A stretch of DNA of 24,435 nt. Origin: a virus (taxonomy: Duplodnaviria > Heunggongvirae > Uroviricota > Caudoviricetes). Where the stretch lies: IMG/VR virus record IMGVR_UViG_2541047682_000003; one strand, given 5' to 3'. This document shows positions 6,163 through 23,138 of this stretch, piece after piece. The stretch's first letter is position 1, and every line of letters begins with the position of its first letter. The position numbers and the translations under genes were made by a program. A model generated the notes under the pieces. The model ran no database searches and was not told the origin of the DNA. It saw nothing but the letters and a program-made list of their open reading frames with translations.

Positions 6163-6744
6163 ATGAACAACTCATGGTGGCAGGAACTAATGCATTTTTT
6201 CCTGCAAGGAATGACACTTAAACAGTTGATTCATATGCTAATCATCCTGATCATATTGATTATTGTTATGCCGGTAAGCGTAAAAGAATGGATAAACCTG
6301 CATAATCCAGAAATCCTTCCTCATTACTGGATGTATTACATCCTGTTGTTTTGCGTTAGCTATGTGCTTAACGGCGTTGTTAATTCCGCTTATCACGCTG
6401 TGACTGAAAGAATTGAGGTATTCGCTGCTCAGAAGCGCAAATCTAAAGAAGAAAAATATGTGCAAGATTTGTTTGATTCGTTAACTCTTGGAGAAAGAGC
6501 GTATTTGGCATTCGCTGTAGCCGCTAATAACCAGCTACAAACGGAAAAGGGCGCTCATGAATCAATTTCATTGCTCAAAAAAGGACTCCTCGTTCGAAGG
6601 CCTCCTGCTGTTGGATATCCTGATACCGACCGTTTCGTTATCCCTGAAAGCTATAGACATGAGTGCTACATTAGGTTTGCCGGGAAGGCAGACAGCCTTA
6701 TGGATGAACTTATCGCTCAGGATAAGCATGGCAAAAACAAGTAA
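6163..6744 (+). CDS. sieB: SieB-like superinfection exclusion protein (membrane)
   Basis: 193-aa ORF with a strongly hydrophobic N-terminal segment (LIHMLIILIILIIVMPV); sequence as recalled for lambdoid SieB. Converges on the N gene. True start may be an internal Met. Confidence 0.75.
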   Translation: MNNSWWQELMHFFLQGMTLKQLIHMLIILIILIIVMPVSVKEWINLHNPEILPHYWMYYILLFCVSYVLNGVVNSAYHAVTERIEVFAAQKRKSKEEKYVQDLFDSLTLGERAYLAFAVAANNQLQTEKGAHESISLLKKGLLVRRPPAVGYPDTDRFVIPESYRHECYIRFAGKADSLMDELIAQDKHGKNK

Positions 6745-7045
6745 TTAGCAAATGAATTTATCATCTCGCCGTCAGTTGTTTTGATTTCCGGTAGCCTGCC
6801 GCGTAAAGAGCTACGTTCGGAAGACAAGTTGAACCTTCATATTTTCTGGTCAACGTTGTCAGAGTTATCACTTCTGCTCTCATTGCTGGTTTGAGCTTGC
6901 ATTGCAAGACCACTCGTGAAGGGGTTGGCCTGTGTAGCTTGTCGGAGCTGATCGCCTCCTGACTTTGCAGATTTGCGCGACGAGCTCTACGGCGAGAAGC
7001 TGCGGTGCCTTTAAATGAAGTGGTCAACAAAAACTGGCCACCGAG

Positions 7046-8193
<1,148 letters not shown>

Positions 8194-8722: not shown

Positions 8723-9475
8723 TTATGCTGCAAGTCTCTTAACCCAAGTCTCTCTTTTGGAGAATGGTAGAACTTGGCTTGATTCATGGAAGAGTAAGGA
8801 GAGTTGTTGCATTTGATCACCAATTGCTTCGCTGTCTATAACAACAAATCTGTTGTTATACTCCTCACTTGAAGCTTTAAGATCAATTAGTTTCCCAAGC
8901 AATGAGTAAGCACTATTCCAGCTTCCTCCGTGTTTCACGCTTGATGTAAAAACGTATTTAGGTATGTCGGTTTTTATTGTTACAGGGACGGTAATTTGAT
9001 GTCCACTCAAGCCATATACGTTTTCACGAAGAGAAAGTGCGTCTCTAAGCTCTGTGTGATATAGATAATCAATAACCATACTTTCAAACTTTTCAGCTTG
9101 AACTGGCTGATACCAGTCTAACGACAAAGTTGATGCGAGTATACCAGCTCTAATTATGTTCGATGTAATCGCACCGACATCCTTTTCTGTTGCCCAAGCA
9201 ATGATTTCTCCTCGAGCATTGAGTTCTGCGCCTTCTTTAAGCAGTAATTGTCGTATCTCATCAAGTCGTTTTTTGGTAAGCGAGATCCCTCTTGCCTCCA
9301 TATTCATTAAGGCATCGCATCTGTCACTAACTAAATACCTACCATTGACTTCACGGATAAAGGCACCGACATGCTCTCCATCATCACAGTAAGTGAATGG
9401 ACTGATAATTCTCAAGGTCTTGCCTATTGGATGGCATTCGAAACCTAGTTGTGAGATCACTGTTGAGCACATCAT
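8723..9475 (-). CDS. Uncharacterised protein B of the cI-linked two-gene cassette
   Basis: 250-aa ORF; its ATG (9475-9473) overlaps the TGA of the upstream ORF (ATGA). No family or catalytic motif recognised. AT-rich by eye. Confidence 0.7.
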   Translation of the reverse strand: MMCSTVISQLGFECHPIGKTLRIISPFTYCDDGEHVGAFIREVNGRYLVSDRCDALMNMEARGISLTKKRLDEIRQLLLKEGAELNARGEIIAWATEKDVGAITSNIIRAGILASTLSLDWYQPVQAEKFESMVIDYLYHTELRDALSLRENVYGLSGHQITVPVTIKTDIPKYVFTSSVKHGGSWNSAYSLLGKLIDLKASSEEYNNRFVVIDSEAIGDQMQQLSLLFHESSQVLPFSKRETWVKRLAA

Positions 9476-10029
9476 ATTCCAAACCCCATTTGCCCCGACT
9501 CATCTTCAAGCGGTAAAGGTATTCTCCCAGAGTAAGTTATGTTCAGATGTTTACAGAAGTAATTCCAATACCCTACCAGGTCATCTGGGTTTATGTCATC
9601 TTCGATTGGAAACGCTATTCTATCACTATAGTATCCAGCTTCTTCATAGTATACATGGTAGTGAGCACCGTAAATGATATCTTGGTACTTCGGATGATCG
9701 ACCTTGTAACTATTCGTGTGTTTGTCAAAGTGATAGGTATCTACCGCGAAAACCCTCTTGTTATGATAGAAAGCAATAATATTTATTTTAGGGTAAGAAA
9801 TCGGGTCATCAGGTTCTGAATCCTGATCTGGTTTCCATTTCAGTTCAAACTTTAGCCCTTGTATAGGTATACAATCCTCATCCAAGGGGATGATATGGGC
9901 TTGTAGCCACATATCAGAGCGACTTGGTTTCTGTTTCCATTTAACGCCAGAAAAGTTAACTATTTTTTTACAATAAAGTACTTTATCAACTTCTACTTGG
10001 CTTGGCTGATAATCATCTATTTTTGCCAA
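9472..10029 (-). CDS. Uncharacterised protein A of the cI-linked two-gene cassette
   Basis: 185-aa ORF starting 39 nt downstream of the cI stop. First codon is TTG directly after an in-frame TAA, so the start is non-canonical or uncertain. Tyr/His/Asp/Pro-rich, no TM segment, no family recognised. Confidence 0.65.
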   Translation of the reverse strand: MAKIDDYQPSQVEVDKVLYCKKIVNFSGVKWKQKPSRSDMWLQAHIIPLDEDCIPIQGLKFELKWKPDQDSEPDDPISYPKINIIAFYHNKRVFAVDTYHFDKHTNSYKVDHPKYQDIIYGAHYHVYYEEAGYYSDRIAFPIEDDINPDDLVGYWNYFCKHLNITYSGRIPLPLEDESGQMGFGI

Positions 10030-19201: not shown

Positions 19202-19495
19202 TTATTGTGAGCAATACACACGCGCTTCCAGCGGAGTATAAATGCCTAAAGTAATAAAACCGAGCAATCCATTTACGAATGTTTGCTGGGTTTCTGTTTT
19301 AACAACATTTTCTGCACCACCACAAATTTTTGCTGCATCGACAGTTTTCTTCTGCCCAATTCCCGAAACGAAGAAATGATGGGTGATGGTTTCCTTTGGT
19401 GTTACTGCTGTAGGTTTGTTTCCAACAGTAAACGTCTGTTGAGCACATCCTGTAATAAGCATTGCCAGAGCGGCAGAAAACAACATTTTTTTCAT
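19202..19495 (-). CDS. bor: Bor lipoprotein (serum-resistance)
   Basis: 97 codons from MKKMLFSAALAMLITGCAQQ (lipobox); matches lambda Bor as recalled. Confidence 0.92.
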   Translation of the reverse strand: MKKMLFSAALAMLITGCAQQTFTVGNKPTAVTPKETITHHFFVSGIGQKKTVDAAKICGGAENVVKTETQQTFVNGLLGFITLGIYTPLEARVYCSQ

Positions 19496-19677
19496 CTTAT
19501 TATCCTGCATTGTTAAAAACGGCAGAATCCTATGTGACAACAATTAAACGATAGTTAAATGGATTGATGAAAATTAAAACTACACAGGTGGGCTCAGACT
19601 ATTGGAGGAAGTTGGGGACACTCAGAATCCTGTGGAATGAAATAAACCGGTCTATCCGTCCATTACTGGATTTGCCC

Positions 19678-20583
19678 CTATATTTCCAGACACCTGTTAT
19701 CACTTAACCCATTACTGGCTTGCTGCCGCAGATATTCCCGTGGCGAGCGATAACCCAGTGCACTATGCGGATGCCATTCGTTATAATGCTCGAACGCCTC
19801 TGCAAGGTTCTTTGCTGCCGTTAACCCGTCTGGTTTGGGCATGACACTGATGTAGTCACGCTTTATCGTTTTCACGAAGCTCTCTGCTATGCCGTTACTC
19901 TCCGGACTCCGCACCGCCGTGCTCTTCGGTTCAAGCCCCAACATCCGGGCAAACTGCCGTGTTTCATTAGCCCGGTAGCATGAACCATTATCCGTCAGCC
20001 ACTCTACTGGAGACGCCGGAAGCTCGTTGCCGAAGCGGCGTTCCACCGCTCCCAGCATGACGTCCTGTACTGTTTCACTGTTGAAGCCGCCCGTAGTGAC
20101 CGCCCAGTGCAGTGCCTCACGGTCACAGCAGTCCAGCGCGAACGTGACTCGCAGTTTTTCTCCGTTATCACAGCGGAACTCGAACCCGTCAGAGCACCAT
20201 CGCTGATTACTTTCTTTCACAGCCACTCTGCCTGTATGTGCCCGTTTCGATGGCGGTACAGCAGGTTTTCGCTCAAGCAACAGCGCATTCTGGCGCATGA
20301 TCCGGTAAACACGTTTGGCATTGATCGCAGGCATACCATCAAGTTCTGCCTGTCTGCGAAGCAGCGCCCATACCCGACGATAACCATACGTGGGCAGCTC
20401 TCCGATAACATGGTGTATACGGAGAAGCACATCCGTATCATCAGTGTGACGACTGCGGCGGCCATCCATCCAGTCATCGGTTCGTCTGAGAATGACGTGC
20501 AACTGCGCACGCGACACCCGGAGACAACGGCTGACTAAGCTTACTCCCCATCCCCGGGCAATAAGGGCGCGTGCGCTATCCAC
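19678..20583 (-). CDS. insD: IS2 InsD (OrfB transposase)
   Basis: 301-aa [26 protein letters not shown]...; overlaps insC for the frameshift fusion. Confidence 0.92.
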
Positions 20584-20906
20584 TTTTTTGCCCGTCCATA
20601 TTCAACGGCTTCTTTGAGGAGTTCATTTTCCATCGTTTTCTTGCCGAGCAGGCGCTGGAGTTCTTTAATCTGCTTCATGGCGGCAGCAAGTTCAGAGGCA
20701 GGAACAACCTGTTCTCCGGCGGCGACAGCAGTAAGACTTCCTTCCTGGTATTGCTTACGCCAGAGAAATAACTGGCTGGCTGCCACACCGTGTTGCCGGG
20801 CAACGAGGGAGACCGTCATCCCTGGTTCAAAGCTCTGCTGAACAATTGCGATCTTTTCCTGTGTGGTACGCCGTCTGCGTTTCTCCGGTCCTAAGACATC
20901 AATCAT
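20541..20906 (-). CDS. insC: IS2 InsC (OrfA, HTH)
   Basis: 121 codons from [25 protein letters not shown]... Confidence 0.9.
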
Positions 20907-21311
20907 CTGCTCTCCAATGACTAGTCTAAAAACTAGTATTAAGACTATCACTTAAATAAGTGATATTGGTTGTCTGGAGATTCAGGGGGCCAGTCTAATT
21001 ACCCTTTTAGCTGCGCTGTATCGTCGCCGTATTCCCGCATTAACCATGACCGTAGCCCGACGGGGAATTCCTTCTGCGTGAGTGTGCGGGAATAATTAAA
21101 AACGATGCACACCGGGTTTTTACCGCGTTAATGATTCGCGGGTTTATCCCGGTGCGATGGTGGAAGAAACAGGAAGCTGTATTACAGAAAGTGCTACTAC
21201 TGTATCCCGATGCGATGTATGTAATGTGAGTCAGATAATGGCACAGGATGTGGTGATGTGGCAGTCTGGAACACAGGATATATTGTCAGAATAAGACCCG
21301 TAGGAATAAAA

Positions 21312-21638
21312 ATGAAAAGACGCCTTTTACTACTTTTTCTGTTATCTGTCCTGGCAGTGGGATGCTCGCAGCAAAAAGCTGATGAGCCCCGGCAATTAGT
21401 GACGGTGTATCCACGATATCCGGAATATGCTGCAGCAAATTATATCAAGGGGCTGGTTGAGGTTAAGTTCGATATTGGTGCTGATGGGACTGTGACACGG
21501 ATCGTTTTTCTCCGCTCAGAGCCTCATAATTTGTTTCGTGATGAAGTGGTGAAGGCCATGGCGAAATGGCGATTTGAAAAGAATCGCCCCTGTCAGGGAG
21601 TGAAGAGACAATTTATCTTTACGCCGTCACGTCCTTGA
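21312..21638 (+). CDS. Lipoprotein consisting of a TonB C-terminal domain
   Basis: 108 codons from MKRRLLLLFLLSVLAVGCSQQ (signal peptide + lipobox, RBS AGGA). The remainder aligns with the TonB C-terminal domain as recalled (YPRYPEYAAANYIKGLVEVKFDIGADGTVTRIVFLRSEPHNLFRDEVVKAMAKWRFE vs TonB [54 protein letters not shown]). Confidence 0.75.
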   Translation: MKRRLLLLFLLSVLAVGCSQQKADEPRQLVTVYPRYPEYAAANYIKGLVEVKFDIGADGTVTRIVFLRSEPHNLFRDEVVKAMAKWRFEKNRPCQGVKRQFIFTPSRP

Positions 21639-21760: not shown

Positions 21761-21940
21761 TCATTTCTTCTTTTTCTCTGGTGGAACCCGATGAATAAGA
21801 GTTGCACTGGTTTCCGATGAGATGGCGATATACTCGGGCAAAGTATGCTGGCAGTTTTCCAACTGGTCAAAAATACCTGCTCTCGTCTGTTGCAATGCCT
21901 GCAGCATGCGGCGGCAATGCGCCTTGCTTTTACTAACCAT
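21761..21940 (-). CDS. Hypothetical 59-aa protein
   Basis: Start taken at MVSKSKAHCRRMLQ (ATG 21940) preceded by a good RBS (GAGGAAGG). The longer 117-aa reading of the ORF track lacks an RBS and overlaps the next gene. Confidence 0.4.
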   Translation of the reverse strand: MVSKSKAHCRRMLQALQQTRAGIFDQLENCQHTLPEYIAISSETSATLIHRVPPEKKKK

Positions 21941-22001
21941 CTTTCCTTCCTCTATCAGTCGCTGCGTGAACTCATCATGGAATACCAGGTAAATGCGGAT
22001 G

Positions 22002-22253
22002 TTATCGGTTTTGGCTACGCAGCATAGTACAAAACGGACAGGTGCATCCCGGGACGGGGGAGGCGTCACATGTCCCTGTGATGGTTGTTCCGGGTAATGT
22101 ACTGTGTGGGGCATAAAAATGTCCGATAATTTTACTTTCTACCGCAGTTAGTTGATTCGTTGGTCCTGGTAGCACATTGGGCGAGGATTTAAATGCCAGG
22201 CAACTGAAGGATGATGTCGCAAGGGAGATAGCGAGAATATTTCTGATTTTCAT
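22002..22253 (-). CDS. Small secreted cysteine-rich protein
   Basis: 83 codons from MKIRNILAISLATSSFSCLA (signal-peptide-like; RBS GAGG), with a C-terminal Cys cluster TGTCDASPVPGCTCPFCT. Confidence 0.5.
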   Translation of the reverse strand: MKIRNILAISLATSSFSCLAFKSSPNVLPGPTNQLTAVESKIIGHFYAPHSTLPGTTITGTCDASPVPGCTCPFCTMLRSQNR

Positions 22254-22401
22254 TTGATGATGCCTCTGTGTGAAATGACGGTAAACGACGCACTTGTGCC
22301 GGCACATAATAGCAAGCACCATAATAGATCAGATTCGATTCTTGCTGTAAGTGATAATTATTCTCGTTTTCGGGTCCTTTCCGTCGATCCAACAGGTTAC
22401 G

Positions 22402-22413
22402 GGGCGGCGACCT
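22402..22413 (+). other. cosN: the 12-nt lambda cohesive-end sequence
   Basis: Exact GGGCGGCGACCT followed by CGCGGTTTTTCACTATTTATGAAAATTTT, a close match to the lambda cos region as recalled, about 180 bp upstream of Nu1. Confidence 0.9.
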
Positions 22414-22589: not shown

Positions 22590-23138
22590 ATGAAGGTTAA
22601 TAAAAAGAGGCTTGCCGAAATTTTCAACGTGGACCCGCGGACGATTGAACGCTGGCAGTCTCAGGGACTCCCTTGCGCCTCCAAAGGTAGTAAGGGCATT
22701 GAATCTGTATTTGATACTGCCATGGCAATTCAGTGGTATGCGCAGAGGGAAACTGATATCGAAAACGAAAAGCTCCGCAAAGAACTGGCCGATTTGCGTG
22801 CGGCAGCGGAGTCAGATTTACAACCCGGCACCATTGACTATGAACGCTACCGGCTCACAAAAGCGCAGGCAGATGCGCAGGAACTGAAAAATGCCCGTGA
22901 AGACGGAGTAGTGCTGGAAACTGAACTGTTTACCTTCATTCTGCAACGTGTGGCACAGGAGATTTCGGGGATACTTGTGCGTGTGCCGTTGACATTACAG
23001 CGTAAATATCCGGACATTTCACCATCACACCTTGATGTGGTGAAAACTGAAATCGCGAAAGCCTCCAATGTTGCAGCTAAGGCCGGTGAAAACGTGGGCG
23101 GGTGGATCGATGATTTCAGACGCGCAGAAGGCAGCTAA
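22590..23138 (+). CDS. nu1: Terminase small subunit (Nu1-like)
   Basis: 182-aa ORF resembling lambda gpNu1 as recalled ([12 protein letters not shown]...[15 protein letters not shown]...[29 protein letters not shown]). Confidence 0.93.

Follow-up and report, generated by a model that had tools for sequence, protein, structure and literature searches.

A prophage lipoprotein gene made of a TonB C-terminal domain, a candidate decoy against TonB-dependent entry

The locus between bor and cos

The window analysed in this study is a stretch of 24,435 nucleotides from a Caudoviricetes virus (IMG/VR record IMGVR_UViG_2541047682_000003), and the gene under study is an open reading frame for a protein of 108 residues, confirmed at 21312-21638 on the plus strand with the stop codon included and recorded in RefSeq as a 'TonB family protein' (WP_000830178.1). 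A Shine-Dalgarno motif, AGGA, stands 6 nt before the ATG (21302-21305, plus strand) and is annotated as the ribosome binding site in the phage 21 record as well. The left neighbour is a bor/iss lipoprotein gene on the minus strand (19202-19495), which RefSeq names iss and which is a homologue of phage 21 bor. Between the two genes, 315 bp upstream of the TonB C-terminal domain (TonB-CTD) gene, lies an IS2-like element of the IS3 family (19667-20997, minus strand, 1331 bp), delimited by alignment to phage 21, labelled 'IS3 family transposase' in RefSeq and flanked by a 5-bp target duplication, ATTAC, at 19662-19666 and 20998-21002. This element is particular to the present prophage copy and is missing from 61 other 21-type loci.

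On the right, a 12-nt cohesive-end sequence of the cosN type, GGGCGGCGACCT, occurs as a single exact match at 22402-22413 on the plus strand, with 0 expected; we take it to be identical to lambda cosN, and it stands where the linear phage 21 record ends. As the region is bounded by this site on the right, the gene lies near the right end of the virion DNA. With bor on one side and the cosN-type site and Nu1 (at 22590) on the other, the gene does lie in the moron region between bor and cos, where an earlier note on this DNA, made from the letters alone, had placed it. A 15/19 match to the Fur box at 22353 falls in the AT-rich cos region. The same prophage also has an Rz/Rz1 pair upstream of the gene, a porin (RefSeq) that makes a second neighbouring envelope moron beside bor/iss, and, at its other end, sitABCD, a TonB-independent Fe/Mn importer which holds the same place in Perceval and is not seen in phage 21 or in Stx-type carriers. 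The C-terminus of the prophage J protein is of the phage 21 type and is 53% identical to that of lambda J.

A lipoprotein signal joined to a TonB C-terminal domain

The protein begins with MKRRLLLLFLLSVLAVGC and continues with SQQ, and a signal peptide with lipobox (MKRRLLLLFLLSVLAVG-C18) can be read at 21312-21365 on the plus strand. Its parts are MKRR, the segment LLLLFLLSVL, A-V-G-C18 and then S19, with no Asp at +2; the lipobox L-A-V-G-C satisfies the PROSITE-type rule, with K/R in the n-region and an uncharged h-region, and the protein thereby carries the n-region, h-region and lipobox of an SPase II substrate. In an alignment of 13 family members, whose identity to the window protein is 31-85%, Cys18 is invariant; the lipobox Cys is found in essentially all related enterobacterial loci, and the residue after it is S, T or A throughout the family. 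Searched with a broad family alignment, viral contigs gave near-identical E. coli copies only. The rule and the invariant Cys together bear out the lipoprotein signal with an LAVGC lipobox that had been proposed earlier. Ser at +2 predicts sorting to the outer membrane, and the protein would be lipidated and sorted by the Lol route. A short tether, SQQKADE (residues 19-25; 21366-21386, plus strand), leads from Cys18 to the folded domain, so that the spacing is only 7-9 residues (SQQKADEPR); in the AlphaFold2 (AF2) model residues 1-20 have a low pLDDT and residues 21-30 one of 79.

Residues 26-104 (21387-21623, plus strand) form a TonB C-terminal domain. The earlier note had assigned the mature part to this domain by alignment with E. 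coli TonB and had named a TonB_C profile search and a structure prediction as checks, and both came out in its favour. The protein matches Pfam PF03544 (TonB_C) at E=7.3e-13 with 49.2 bits against a cutoff of 24.6, TIGR01352 of NCBIfam with 47.4 bits against 27.1, and PDB entry 1u07, a TonB-CTD, at E=1.4e-14. The AF2 model, with a mean pLDDT of 86 and values above 94 within the domain, superposes by Foldseek on E. coli TonB-CTD structures (1u07, 2gsk_B, 2grx_C), including TonB bound to BtuB and to FhuA, with a target-normalised TM of 0.9 and an rmsd of 0.9-1.5 Å. Its first strand is at residues 28-30, and its last, residues 94-103, is equivalent to beta3 of TonB. PF03544 is the sole Pfam match; among PHROGs the protein matches phrog_1267 and phrog_34172, and a structural search of BFVD with the model gave no neighbour at E<1e-3.

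The alignment with E. coli TonB pairs residues 24-103 with 151-230, and the window protein has the same Pfam domain and fold as the E. coli TonB-CTD (about residues 150-239; 1U07, 1XX3, 2GSK chain B, 2GRX chain C), keeping the YP motif, G186, five recognition aromatics and the beta3-equivalent strand. Unlike TonB, it has neither the signal-anchor helix with His20 nor the Pro-rich spacer: the N-terminus contains no His and has a 17-residue lipoprotein signal of the cleavable type in place of the transmembrane anchor, and no Glu-Pro / Lys-Pro segment occurs in the 108 residues. The full-length TonB equivalog models give 45-69 bits against cutoffs of 265-448, with the match confined to the C-terminal ~80 model positions, which agrees with the earlier statement that both the proline-rich spacer and the N-terminal transmembrane helix are missing. 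Because these parts are absent, the protein would be uncoupled from ExbB/ExbD, and because a cleavable lipoprotein signal replaces the anchor helix, its predicted anchoring is inverted with respect to TonB, in the outer instead of the inner membrane. Its chain also stops 4 residues short of the TonB end, its identity to the E. coli TonB-CTD is only ~41%, and in a tree it falls into a clade separate from the true TonBs; it is not a recent copy of the host tonB.

TonB boxes pair with the beta3 strand of TonB, and the Q160 region together with R166 provides TonB contacts revealed by cross-linking and by the FhuA complex, these being the best known TonB-box/cork positions. Judged by its residues and by the predicted strand 94-103, the window protein has both a free beta3 edge and recognition residues suited to TonB-box docking. 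Y33 stands at the position of Q160 and Y39 at that of R166; the latter position is Tyr in 10 of the 13 aligned members of the lipoprotein family, Gln in an independent lipoprotein lineage described below, and Arg in all 8 sampled CTDs of true TonBs. Seven residues of the TonB-CTD, namely Y163, F180, G186, F202, W213, Y215 and F230, have experimentally idiosyncratic colicin and transport phenotypes, and for five of the seven, conservation across TonBs at large is only 22-53% (PMC3005593). Their equivalents here are Y36, F53, G59, F75, W86, F88 and F103, that is, six identical residues and the change of Y215 to Phe. The retained aromatics are largely core residues, and their retention may reflect only the maintenance of the fold.

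Distribution, transcription and related lipoproteins

The gene is already known as a sequence and is not new. Gene CPT_21_73 of phage 21 is 100% identical to it, the phage 21 and Perceval copies (LF82_160 / PERCE_65) are the same gene at 99.9-100% DNA identity, and an identical copy in the ev017 record bears the EDL933-derived name 'partial tonB-like membrane protein encoded within prophage CP-933N'. The existing records are annotation only, and none of them mentions the lipobox or gives a function; a full-text literature search for a functional study, or for binding, localisation or phenotype data, found none, its only relevant match being the moron table of a study on strain LF82.

Among 5426 complete E. 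coli genomes, the identical-type gene occurs in 1225 and is intact in 1221 of these, while an allele of 72% identity, carried by Stx1a and JLK-2012-type phages, occurs in 415 more (intact in 414). Between the window-type and the Stx-type E. coli alleles dN/dS is 0.12 at a dS of ~1.5, and selection on the gene is strongly purifying. It is common in B2 ExPEC lineages and frequent in ExPEC and AIEC strains, with ST131, ST73, ST95, ST1193, LF82 and EHEC lineages among its carriers. The gene keeps to a fixed site, in the order Rz-(bor)-gene-cos and always between Rz/bor and cos, and four different phage groups all have it directly after the lysis cassette, on the strand of the late genes; many lambdoid phages with the same flanking DNA are without the gene. 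Some family members are in chromosomal islets that do not look like phage and are away from lysis genes.

Published RNA-seq of the LF82 lysogen places the gene at log2 5.0-6.6 in 10 of 10 samples, with the flanking Rz and terminase genes at background (2.3-4.3); the gene is thus 8-fold above the prophage background next to silent late genes, its expression is unchanged between LB, DMEM and macrophages, and the authors of that study listed it as a moron. Since the gene is on in these data while its neighbours are silent, it is probably transcribed autonomously, at an mRNA level that is only moderate. Variable presence, a fixed site and transcription in the lysogen independent of the flanking phage genes together make it a moron. 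Its promoter is expected in the upstream region at 21188-21311 (plus strand), which an upstream alignment shows to be allele-specific and in which a weak candidate -10 element, GATAAT, is found at 21234-21239 and is kept in the Stx-type allele. A consensus promoter scan upstream of the gene gave nothing on the plus strand, and the best site of a lenient scan reached 8/12. The best upstream match to the Fur box is an unremarkable 11/19, and the stop codon is followed by a hairpin without a U-tract (z=-1.4), which falls short of a terminator.

The gene belongs to a family of lipobox-bearing proteins, carried by enterobacterial mobile elements, that consist of the TonB-CTD only. A second lipoprotein-TonB-CTD lineage is 62% identical to the E. 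coli TonB-CTD and branches inside the clade of true TonBs; on this sequence evidence it is independently derived, with a lipobox gained separately. Its members are on integrase-bearing islands of the Klebsiella type, where their gene forms a single cluster of overlapping genes, all in the same orientation, with the gene of a lipoprotein that carries TolA domain III (PF06519, E=7e-20), as in the two loci L147 (8001-9237) and L148. Among the morons of lambdoid prophages such TolA-III lipoproteins are frequent as well, and 897 of the 5426 genomes have relatives; these lipoproteins sit in moron hotspots beside the lysis cassette, and two prophage contigs (L079 and L081) carry a TolA-III and a TonB-CTD lipoprotein both. 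Examples are WP_000506936.1, named 'tolA' by PGAP, and the 'TolA protein' of mEp460_ev081, and the identity to E. coli TolA 333-421, counted from an alignment, is ~56%. They follow the same design as the window protein, with a lipobox and a C-terminal head only, for the other trans-envelope energiser, and differ from it in the domain used. The searches made for a characterisation of the TolA-III lipoproteins found none. What TonB and TolA share is one thing, that both are hijacked for the entry of colicins and phages.

Possible function of the tethered domain

The reading we put forward, tentatively and as somewhat short of probable, is that this outer-membrane-tethered TonB-CTD blocks the TonB-dependent entry of toxins and phages to the benefit of the lysogen. 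The moron product would be held by its tether of 7-9 residues directly beneath the TonB-dependent transporters, and its domain, which is without the membrane anchor and spacer of TonB, would receive no energy from ExbB/ExbD. The last beta-strand would pair with exposed TonB boxes, both those of ligand-loaded transporters (FhuA, FepA, Cir, BtuB and others) and those in the N-termini of group B colicins, and by occupying them would compete with the scarce host TonB. Colicins, microcins and phages such as T1 and phi80 would then enter less readily, or not at all, by the TonB-dependent route, at the cost of some loss of siderophore and B12 uptake. The binding to TonB boxes, the competition with TonB and the phenotype are what we infer. 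The lysogen would gain protection from other phages and toxins, with no self-exclusion: exclusion by way of a FhuA-type receptor of the phage itself is rejected, the carrier phages having a lambda-like J tip, and for the same reason any exclusion would be aimed at other phages or toxins.

A precedent for such interference comes from the laboratory, where periplasmic C-terminal TonB fragments reportedly act as dominant negatives, the premise of the earlier note; those of at least 86 residues are reported to bind FhuA, with inhibition of both ferrichrome uptake and phi80. The window protein resembles these fragments as a ~90-residue TonB-CTD without the energising part, and its mature form, equivalent to TonB 145-235, is longer than the 86-residue fragment reported to bind FhuA; it differs from them in being a natural phage gene product, diverged in sequence, with a predicted lipid tether to the outer membrane where they are soluble. 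A second precedent is given by the lipoproteins Llp of T5 and Cor of phi80, which act on FhuA from the periplasmic leaflet. Like Llp and the Cor proteins of phi80, N15 and HK022, which work on a TonB-dependent transporter at the inner leaflet of the outer membrane, the window protein is a small phage lipoprotein; unlike them, with which the Pfam and BFVD searches show no kinship in sequence or fold, it would target the generic TonB box, whereas the specific target of Llp and Cor is FhuA, which also serves as receptor for the phages that encode them.

Several observations strengthen the decoy reading, which the earlier note had proposed as a means of superinfection exclusion or colicin immunity. 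The seven recognition residues are kept (six identical and one Tyr to Phe change), the gene is under purifying selection with the lipobox conserved down to 31% identity, it is expressed on its own in the lysogen, and the J tip of the carrier phages is lambda-like. What is more, an independent lipoprotein-TonB-CTD clusters with a lipoprotein of TolA domain III, and the TolA-III lipoproteins are themselves common lambdoid morons, found twice in the same contig as a TonB-CTD gene. This comparative evidence, of a TonB-CTD lipoprotein family and of TonB-CTD/TolA-III clusters, seems to us to favour a decoy, with the co-occurrence of TolA counting as guilt by association. Against a decoy count the moderate mRNA level, the replacement of the residues at the Q160 and R166 positions, the missing link to FhuA-type tail tips, and a search of PADLOC-DB, which gave no match to a catalogued defence protein at E<=0.1. 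A further point against it is the cost that a strong block of TonB would have in B2 ExPEC hosts, whose virulence depends on taking up iron by way of TonB.

The domain may instead have been re-purposed for a partner other than a TonB box, such as peptidoglycan, an envelope protein or a beta-strand ligand of phage or host, in a lipoprotein that stabilises or remodels the envelope and affects, as its neighbour Bor/Iss, outer-membrane integrity, vesiculation or serum resistance. An old lineage separate from the true TonBs, the family-specific changes at the Q160 and R166 positions, the company of bor/iss and a porin, and the members in chromosomal islets without a phage look would all fit; the enteric TonB recognition aromatics are kept, however, the fold is near-identical to that of receptor-bound TonB, and no data point to another ligand; we hold this explanation to be unlikely, if by no means negligible. 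Somewhat less likely again is that the protein binds TonB boxes as proposed above and brings a physiological benefit with no role in defence, by damping the uptake of nutrients and iron that the lysogen achieves through TonB, with less iron toxicity or less uptake of siderophore-linked antimicrobials as possible gains. The earlier note had raised modulation of iron uptake as its alternative, and sitABCD at the other end of this prophage and of Perceval speaks for it, as does the frequency of the gene in ExPEC and AIEC strains; it is weakened by the upstream Fur-box search (best match 11/19), by the constant expression in LB, DMEM and macrophages, by the phage 21 and Stx-type carriers, in which sit was not seen, and by the co-occurrence with TolA-III lipoproteins, which iron physiology leaves unexplained.

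The PHROGs label 'Rz-like spanin' would make the product a lysis accessory, a late-made outer-membrane lipoprotein that helps to disrupt the envelope. The full-length match to phrog_1267, of the lysis category, is strong (E=5e-43), and the gene is always directly downstream of the lysis cassette on the late strand in the four phage groups, but the same prophage already has Rz/Rz1, the gene is neither embedded in nor paired with an i-spanin gene, and its product has a globular domain of 80 residues in place of a short Pro-rich periplasmic segment and no C-terminal transmembrane helix; in addition, its transcript is present in lysogens whose lysis genes are silent, and relatives are found away from lysis genes. 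A role in lysis is thus very improbable, and the identity as a spanin itself (o-spanin or u-spanin) is rejected, its defining features being absent in spite of the label. As for a non-functional remnant of a transduced host tonB, which the wording 'partial tonB-like' and 'TonB fragment' in the EDL933-derived and Perceval records implies, it has next to no probability and is effectively refuted by the data on selection and conservation, since the gene is in a separate clade at 41% identity to the E. coli TonB-CTD, has gained a signal peptide and lipobox, and is conserved (dN/dS 0.12), intact in 1221/1225 and 414/415 genomes, and expressed.

If the protein is indeed a decoy for TonB boxes, a lipoprotein of 108 residues present in ~23-30% of complete E. 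coli genomes would alter the sensitivity to TonB-dependent colicins, microcins and phages, and possibly to siderophore-conjugated antibiotics too, by targeting the shared TonB box and not a single receptor. This would bear on the host range in phage therapy, on bacteriocin competition in the gut and on how 'Trojan horse' uptake of the cefiderocol type is read, and the genes for the TonB-CTD and TolA-III lipoproteins would together make up a new class of cargo genes that block entry. A wider proposal, more doubtful than the decoy reading of this one gene, is that enterobacterial mobile elements have a general, hitherto unrecognised immunity strategy of encoding outer-membrane-tethered, energy-uncoupled TonB-CTD and TolA-III heads, which capture the TonB boxes or TolA-binding epitopes that colicins, microcins and several phages have to expose in the periplasm; in that case one small gene would give broad, receptor-independent tolerance to group A and B colicins, microcins and several phages, and no fewer than a quarter to a third of the sequenced E. 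coli would harbour a decoy of this kind. If such genes do encode decoys, the names that they now bear, 'TonB family protein', 'TonB fragment', 'Rz-like spanin' and even 'tolA', are mis-annotations.

The lipoprotein and its TonB C-terminal domain

The gene is an ORF of 108 codons on the + strand (21312-21638), whose ATG lies 6 nt 3' of an AGGA motif. There is a longer reading from a GTG at 21258; neither RefSeq nor the phage 21 annotators chose this start, and homologues begin at MKR.... As read from the sequence, the N-terminus MKRRLLLLFLLSVLAVG-C18-S fits the lipoprotein signal rule, and with Ser at +2 the protein is predicted to be carried to the outer membrane by the Lol pathway. Residues 24-103 align without a gap to residues 151-230 of E. 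coli TonB. In profile searches the window protein gave a significant Pfam TonB_C match (E=7.3e-13, 49 bits vs a cutoff of 24.6) and a TIGR01352 score of 47 bits, and the full-length TonB equivalog models matched it only by their last ~80 positions, with scores far under their cutoffs. An AlphaFold2 model, for which the 13-sequence family alignment served as input, has pLDDT >94 across the TonB_C domain and superposes on crystal and NMR structures of the E. coli TonB C-terminal domain (CTD), including BtuB-bound TonB (2GSK) and FhuA-bound TonB (2GRX), with a target-normalised TM of 0.9 and an rmsd of 0.9-1.5 Å. Because the membrane-anchor helix with His20 and the proline-rich spacer are both absent from its sequence, the window protein is a TonB_C-domain lipoprotein and not a TonB. 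The earlier note had described such a product, a lipoprotein made of the TonB C-terminal domain with neither spacer nor N-terminal helix, and its description is correct.

Cys-scanning of TonB 150-239 pointed out seven functionally important residues, namely Y163, F180, G186, F202, W213, Y215 and F230. Each of these has an idiosyncratic profile of its own for colicins and transport; five of the seven have a conservation of 22-53% among TonBs generally, yet are conserved in enterics (PMC3005593). Compared with E. coli TonB, the window protein has Y36, F53, G59, F75, W86, F88 and F103 at these positions, that is, six identical residues and one change of Tyr to Phe, and it differs in having Tyr33 for Q160 and Tyr39 for R166. 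In TonB, suppressors and cross-links of the TonB box classically map to Q160, and R166 touches the FhuA cork. In the family alignment (A1), the R166 equivalent (residue 39, codon 21426-21428) is Tyr in 10 of the 13 aligned lipoproteins; it is Gln in an independent lineage (P0139) and Arg in all 8 true TonB-CTDs sampled, and its loss may be convergent in non-energised versions. The last strand of the window protein (94-103) is the equivalent of TonB beta3, which in the 2GRX and 2GSK complexes pairs with TonB boxes. The other Cys of the window protein, C94, is not kept from allele to allele.

Family history and other lipid-anchored heads

At the DNA level the gene is 100% identical in phage 21 (OL657228.1, CPT_21_73), ev017 and several PhiR phages, and 99.9% identical in Perceval, a prophage of E. 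coli LF82. Gene and domain were previously annotated, CPT_21_73 being labelled 'TonB C-terminal domain protein' and the Perceval copy 'TonB fragment'; no functional study of the gene was found in literature searches. Among 5426 complete E. coli genomes, this 21-type allele occurs at >=95% identity in 1225 under the label 'TonB family protein', and a 72%-identical allele of Stx1a-converting phages and JLK-2012 (Stx-type) occurs in 415, the two sets being counted apart and possibly overlapping. Full-length genes are found in 1221 of the 1225 and in 414 of the 415 genomes. Between the two alleles dS is ~1.5 and dN 0.18, and the resulting dN/dS of 0.12 is alike for the signal peptide and the mature part. 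The gene is functional.

With the window protein as query, 1.8 billion cluster representatives were searched exhaustively by HMMER, and the matches include a set of 100-135-aa proteins which cover the query end to end at 31-46% identity, nearly all with a lipobox; the lipobox Cys is invariant in the family alignment and in the loci recovered from Klebsiella, Raoultella, Pantoea and Erwinia. In a rough neighbour-joining tree these lipoproteins form a clade apart from the enterobacterial TonB-CTD clade; their lineage is old and did not arise as a recent fragment of host tonB. Several distant members lie directly 3' of a phage lysis cassette (e.g. Klebsiella phage ST13-OXA48phi12.4, L105), others in islets that also contain DinI-like, holin-like or cI-like genes, or beside lacZ/lacI. 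As a separate observation, many of the HMMER matches (P0036, P0043, P0047, P0166 and others) contain 2-6 TonB_C domains in tandem, in some cases together with a signal peptide or lipobox, and seem to be another little-described architecture of the domain.

The homologous lipoprotein P0139 (signal ...LALAGC, then SQP) has a longer linker and a domain 62% identical to the E. coli TonB-CTD, which branches within the true-TonB clade of the rough tree and therefore shows that a lipid-anchored TonB head originated a second time, independently. Relatives of P0139 reside on islands, one of which (L146, Klebsiella aerogenes) has an integrase. On two contigs (L147 8001-9237 and L148 3512-4748) the lipoprotein-TonB_C gene is followed by genes for a secreted 143-aa protein and a 118-aa lipoprotein (...MLAGC, then AP), with reading frames that overlap or abut, and L146 (8001-8989) has only the first two. 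The domain of the 118-aa lipoprotein is the C-terminal domain III of TolA (PF06519, E=7e-20). With this lipoprotein as query against the collected loci, a 142-aa lipoprotein (signal ...LTTGC, then T) was found in two E. coli prophage contigs, L079 and L081, both with the Stx-type TonB_C gene; its domain matches E. coli TolA 333-421 (PF06519 E=4e-23; phmmer E=8e-27; ~56% identity, counted from the alignment). The TolA-III lipoprotein genes lie at L079 1414-1842 (+), L081 1555-1824, L150 4933-5361 and 5533-5907, and L149 5001-5429. Strain M10 and phage mEp460_ev081 have one TolA-III gene, or two adjacent ones, between the Q region and the lysis genes, and both products of the M10 pair have a lipobox. 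Relatives of the 142-aa lipoprotein gene are present in 897 of the 5426 E. coli genomes, where PGAP gives them the misleading name 'tolA: cell envelope integrity protein TolA'.

Lambdoid prophages and other islands repeatedly carry lipoprotein-anchored heads of both envelope energisers, and what TonB-CTD and TolA-III have in common is that group B and group A colicins, as well as several phages, exploit them as docking sites in the periplasm. Three points appear to be new: the TonB_C proteins are a conserved family of predicted outer-membrane lipoproteins under purifying selection, a lipid-anchored TonB head has arisen at least two times, and this head travels with likewise lipid-anchored TolA heads.

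Expression in lysogens and a possible decoy role

The identical gene of LF82, LF82_160, is listed as a moron expressed 8-fold over prophage background, with log2 values of 5.0-6.6 in 10 of 10 samples and no change in macrophages (log2FC 0.26), and its neighbours are at background (adjacent Rz, log2 2.3-3.7; terminase small subunit, 2.3-4.3) (PMC9928086). Since LF82_160 is expressed at this level with Rz and terminase at background, the TonB_C gene is transcribed autonomously in lysogens, its level being moderate and apparently constitutive. Scans around the gene gave no convincing promoter, Fur box or intrinsic terminator; the 120 bp 5' of it differ between alleles to about the same extent as the gene itself, and the conserved lambdoid backbone lies farther upstream. 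The best Fur-box-like match in the window (15/19 at 22347-22371, ~30 bp upstream of cosN) is probably due to chance in the AT-rich cos region and unrelated to the TonB_C gene.

Beyond a folded TonB_C lipoprotein expressed in lysogens, we infer each of the following steps. After export the protein would receive its lipid and come to lie in the outer membrane, on the inner leaflet, with a tether of <10 residues keeping its TonB-like head at the height at which TonB boxes are exposed by transporters and by translocating colicins. Without ExbBD-driven force, binding by beta-augmentation would remain unproductive and in competition with the limiting TonB pool. The lysogen is predicted to be less sensitive to phages, colicins and microcins that depend on TonB, and to take up somewhat less siderophore and B12. 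The J tip of the prophage is of the phage 21 type and 53% identical to the C-terminus of lambda J, which we take as indicating a porin-type receptor, and the effect would therefore be aimed at other phages or toxins and not at the own phage. Precedents are the FhuA-specific lipoproteins Llp and Cor and the dominant-negative action of periplasmic TonB fragments; the proposal is akin both to phage lipoproteins which block TonB-dependent gateways and to the laboratory fragments.

Taken as a whole, competition for TonB boxes by a lipid-anchored head is given slightly less than an even chance. Against it stand the expected cost in ExPEC, which is TonB-dependent, the moderate mRNA level and the loss of the Q160 and R166 equivalents, and the conserved aromatics possibly serve just to maintain the fold. 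Another binding partner or a general envelope role is regarded as unlikely. Tuning of iron or nutrient uptake through the same biochemistry is more doubtful still, and we know of no iron-uptake role common to TonB-CTD and TolA-III. In PHROGs the window protein falls into phrog_1267, 'Rz-like spanin' of the lysis category; because it has the TonB_C fold and no spanin features, this label looks like an annotation error spread from gene position, and a lysis accessory or spanin is very improbable. A dead gene fragment deserves hardly any credence for a gene so regularly kept at full length. A PADLOC search of the window protein gave no match. With these comparative findings, the plausible guess of the earlier note becomes a specific, cheaply testable hypothesis on a gene carried by between about a quarter and a third of E. 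coli genomes.

Genomic surroundings

The window matches at 100% identity a phage-21-like prophage, which lies integrated beside icd in a human bloodstream isolate of E. coli, and sitABCD is located at the far end of the same prophage. The local gene order is Q (quuD), porin (-), S, R, Rz/Rz1, iss/bor (19202-19495, -), an IS2-like element, the TonB_C gene, cosN (GGGCGGCGACCT, 22402-22413) and the terminase gene Nu1 (22590), which agrees with the moron-region position between bor and cos proposed earlier. The IS2-like element (IS3 family, 1331 bp, 19667-20997, -), with an ATTAC 5-bp target duplication at 19662-19666 and 20998-21002, sits between iss/bor and the TonB_C gene and has its transposase genes directed away from the latter. 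Its insertion is peculiar to the window copy, being missing from phage 21 and from 61 other same-allele loci; in these 61 the TonB_C gene lies 0.7-1.3 kb past Rz, with or without bor between, and Nu1 follows 1.2-1.4 kb on.

Several other genes of the window deserve mention. The OmpC/NmpC-type porin gene (16329-17471, -; Porin_1 E=2e-151) separates the Q antiterminator from the lysis genes, at the position where phage 21 has tRNA genes, and in LF82 the porin gene is expressed 10-fold over prophage background. According to RefSeq for the identical genome, the superinfection-exclusion gene sieB (~6163-7997) is interrupted by ISEc52 (IS3-like), whose transposase is frameshifted. Beside the cI-like repressor, two co-oriented genes (8723-10029, -) encode a DUF1828 protein of 250 aa and a 185-aa protein with a DUF6978 match below threshold; they occupy the position of rexAB in lambda and may be an uncharacterised defence pair. 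Finally, overlapping ORFs on opposite strands, 21761-22114 (-) and 21845-22027 (+), match phrog_4843 and phrog_3744, both PHROGs of unknown function (E~3e-46); both readings of the DNA at 21761-22114 are thus present in databases, and RefSeq and the phage 21 record annotate the 60-aa ORF on the + strand.
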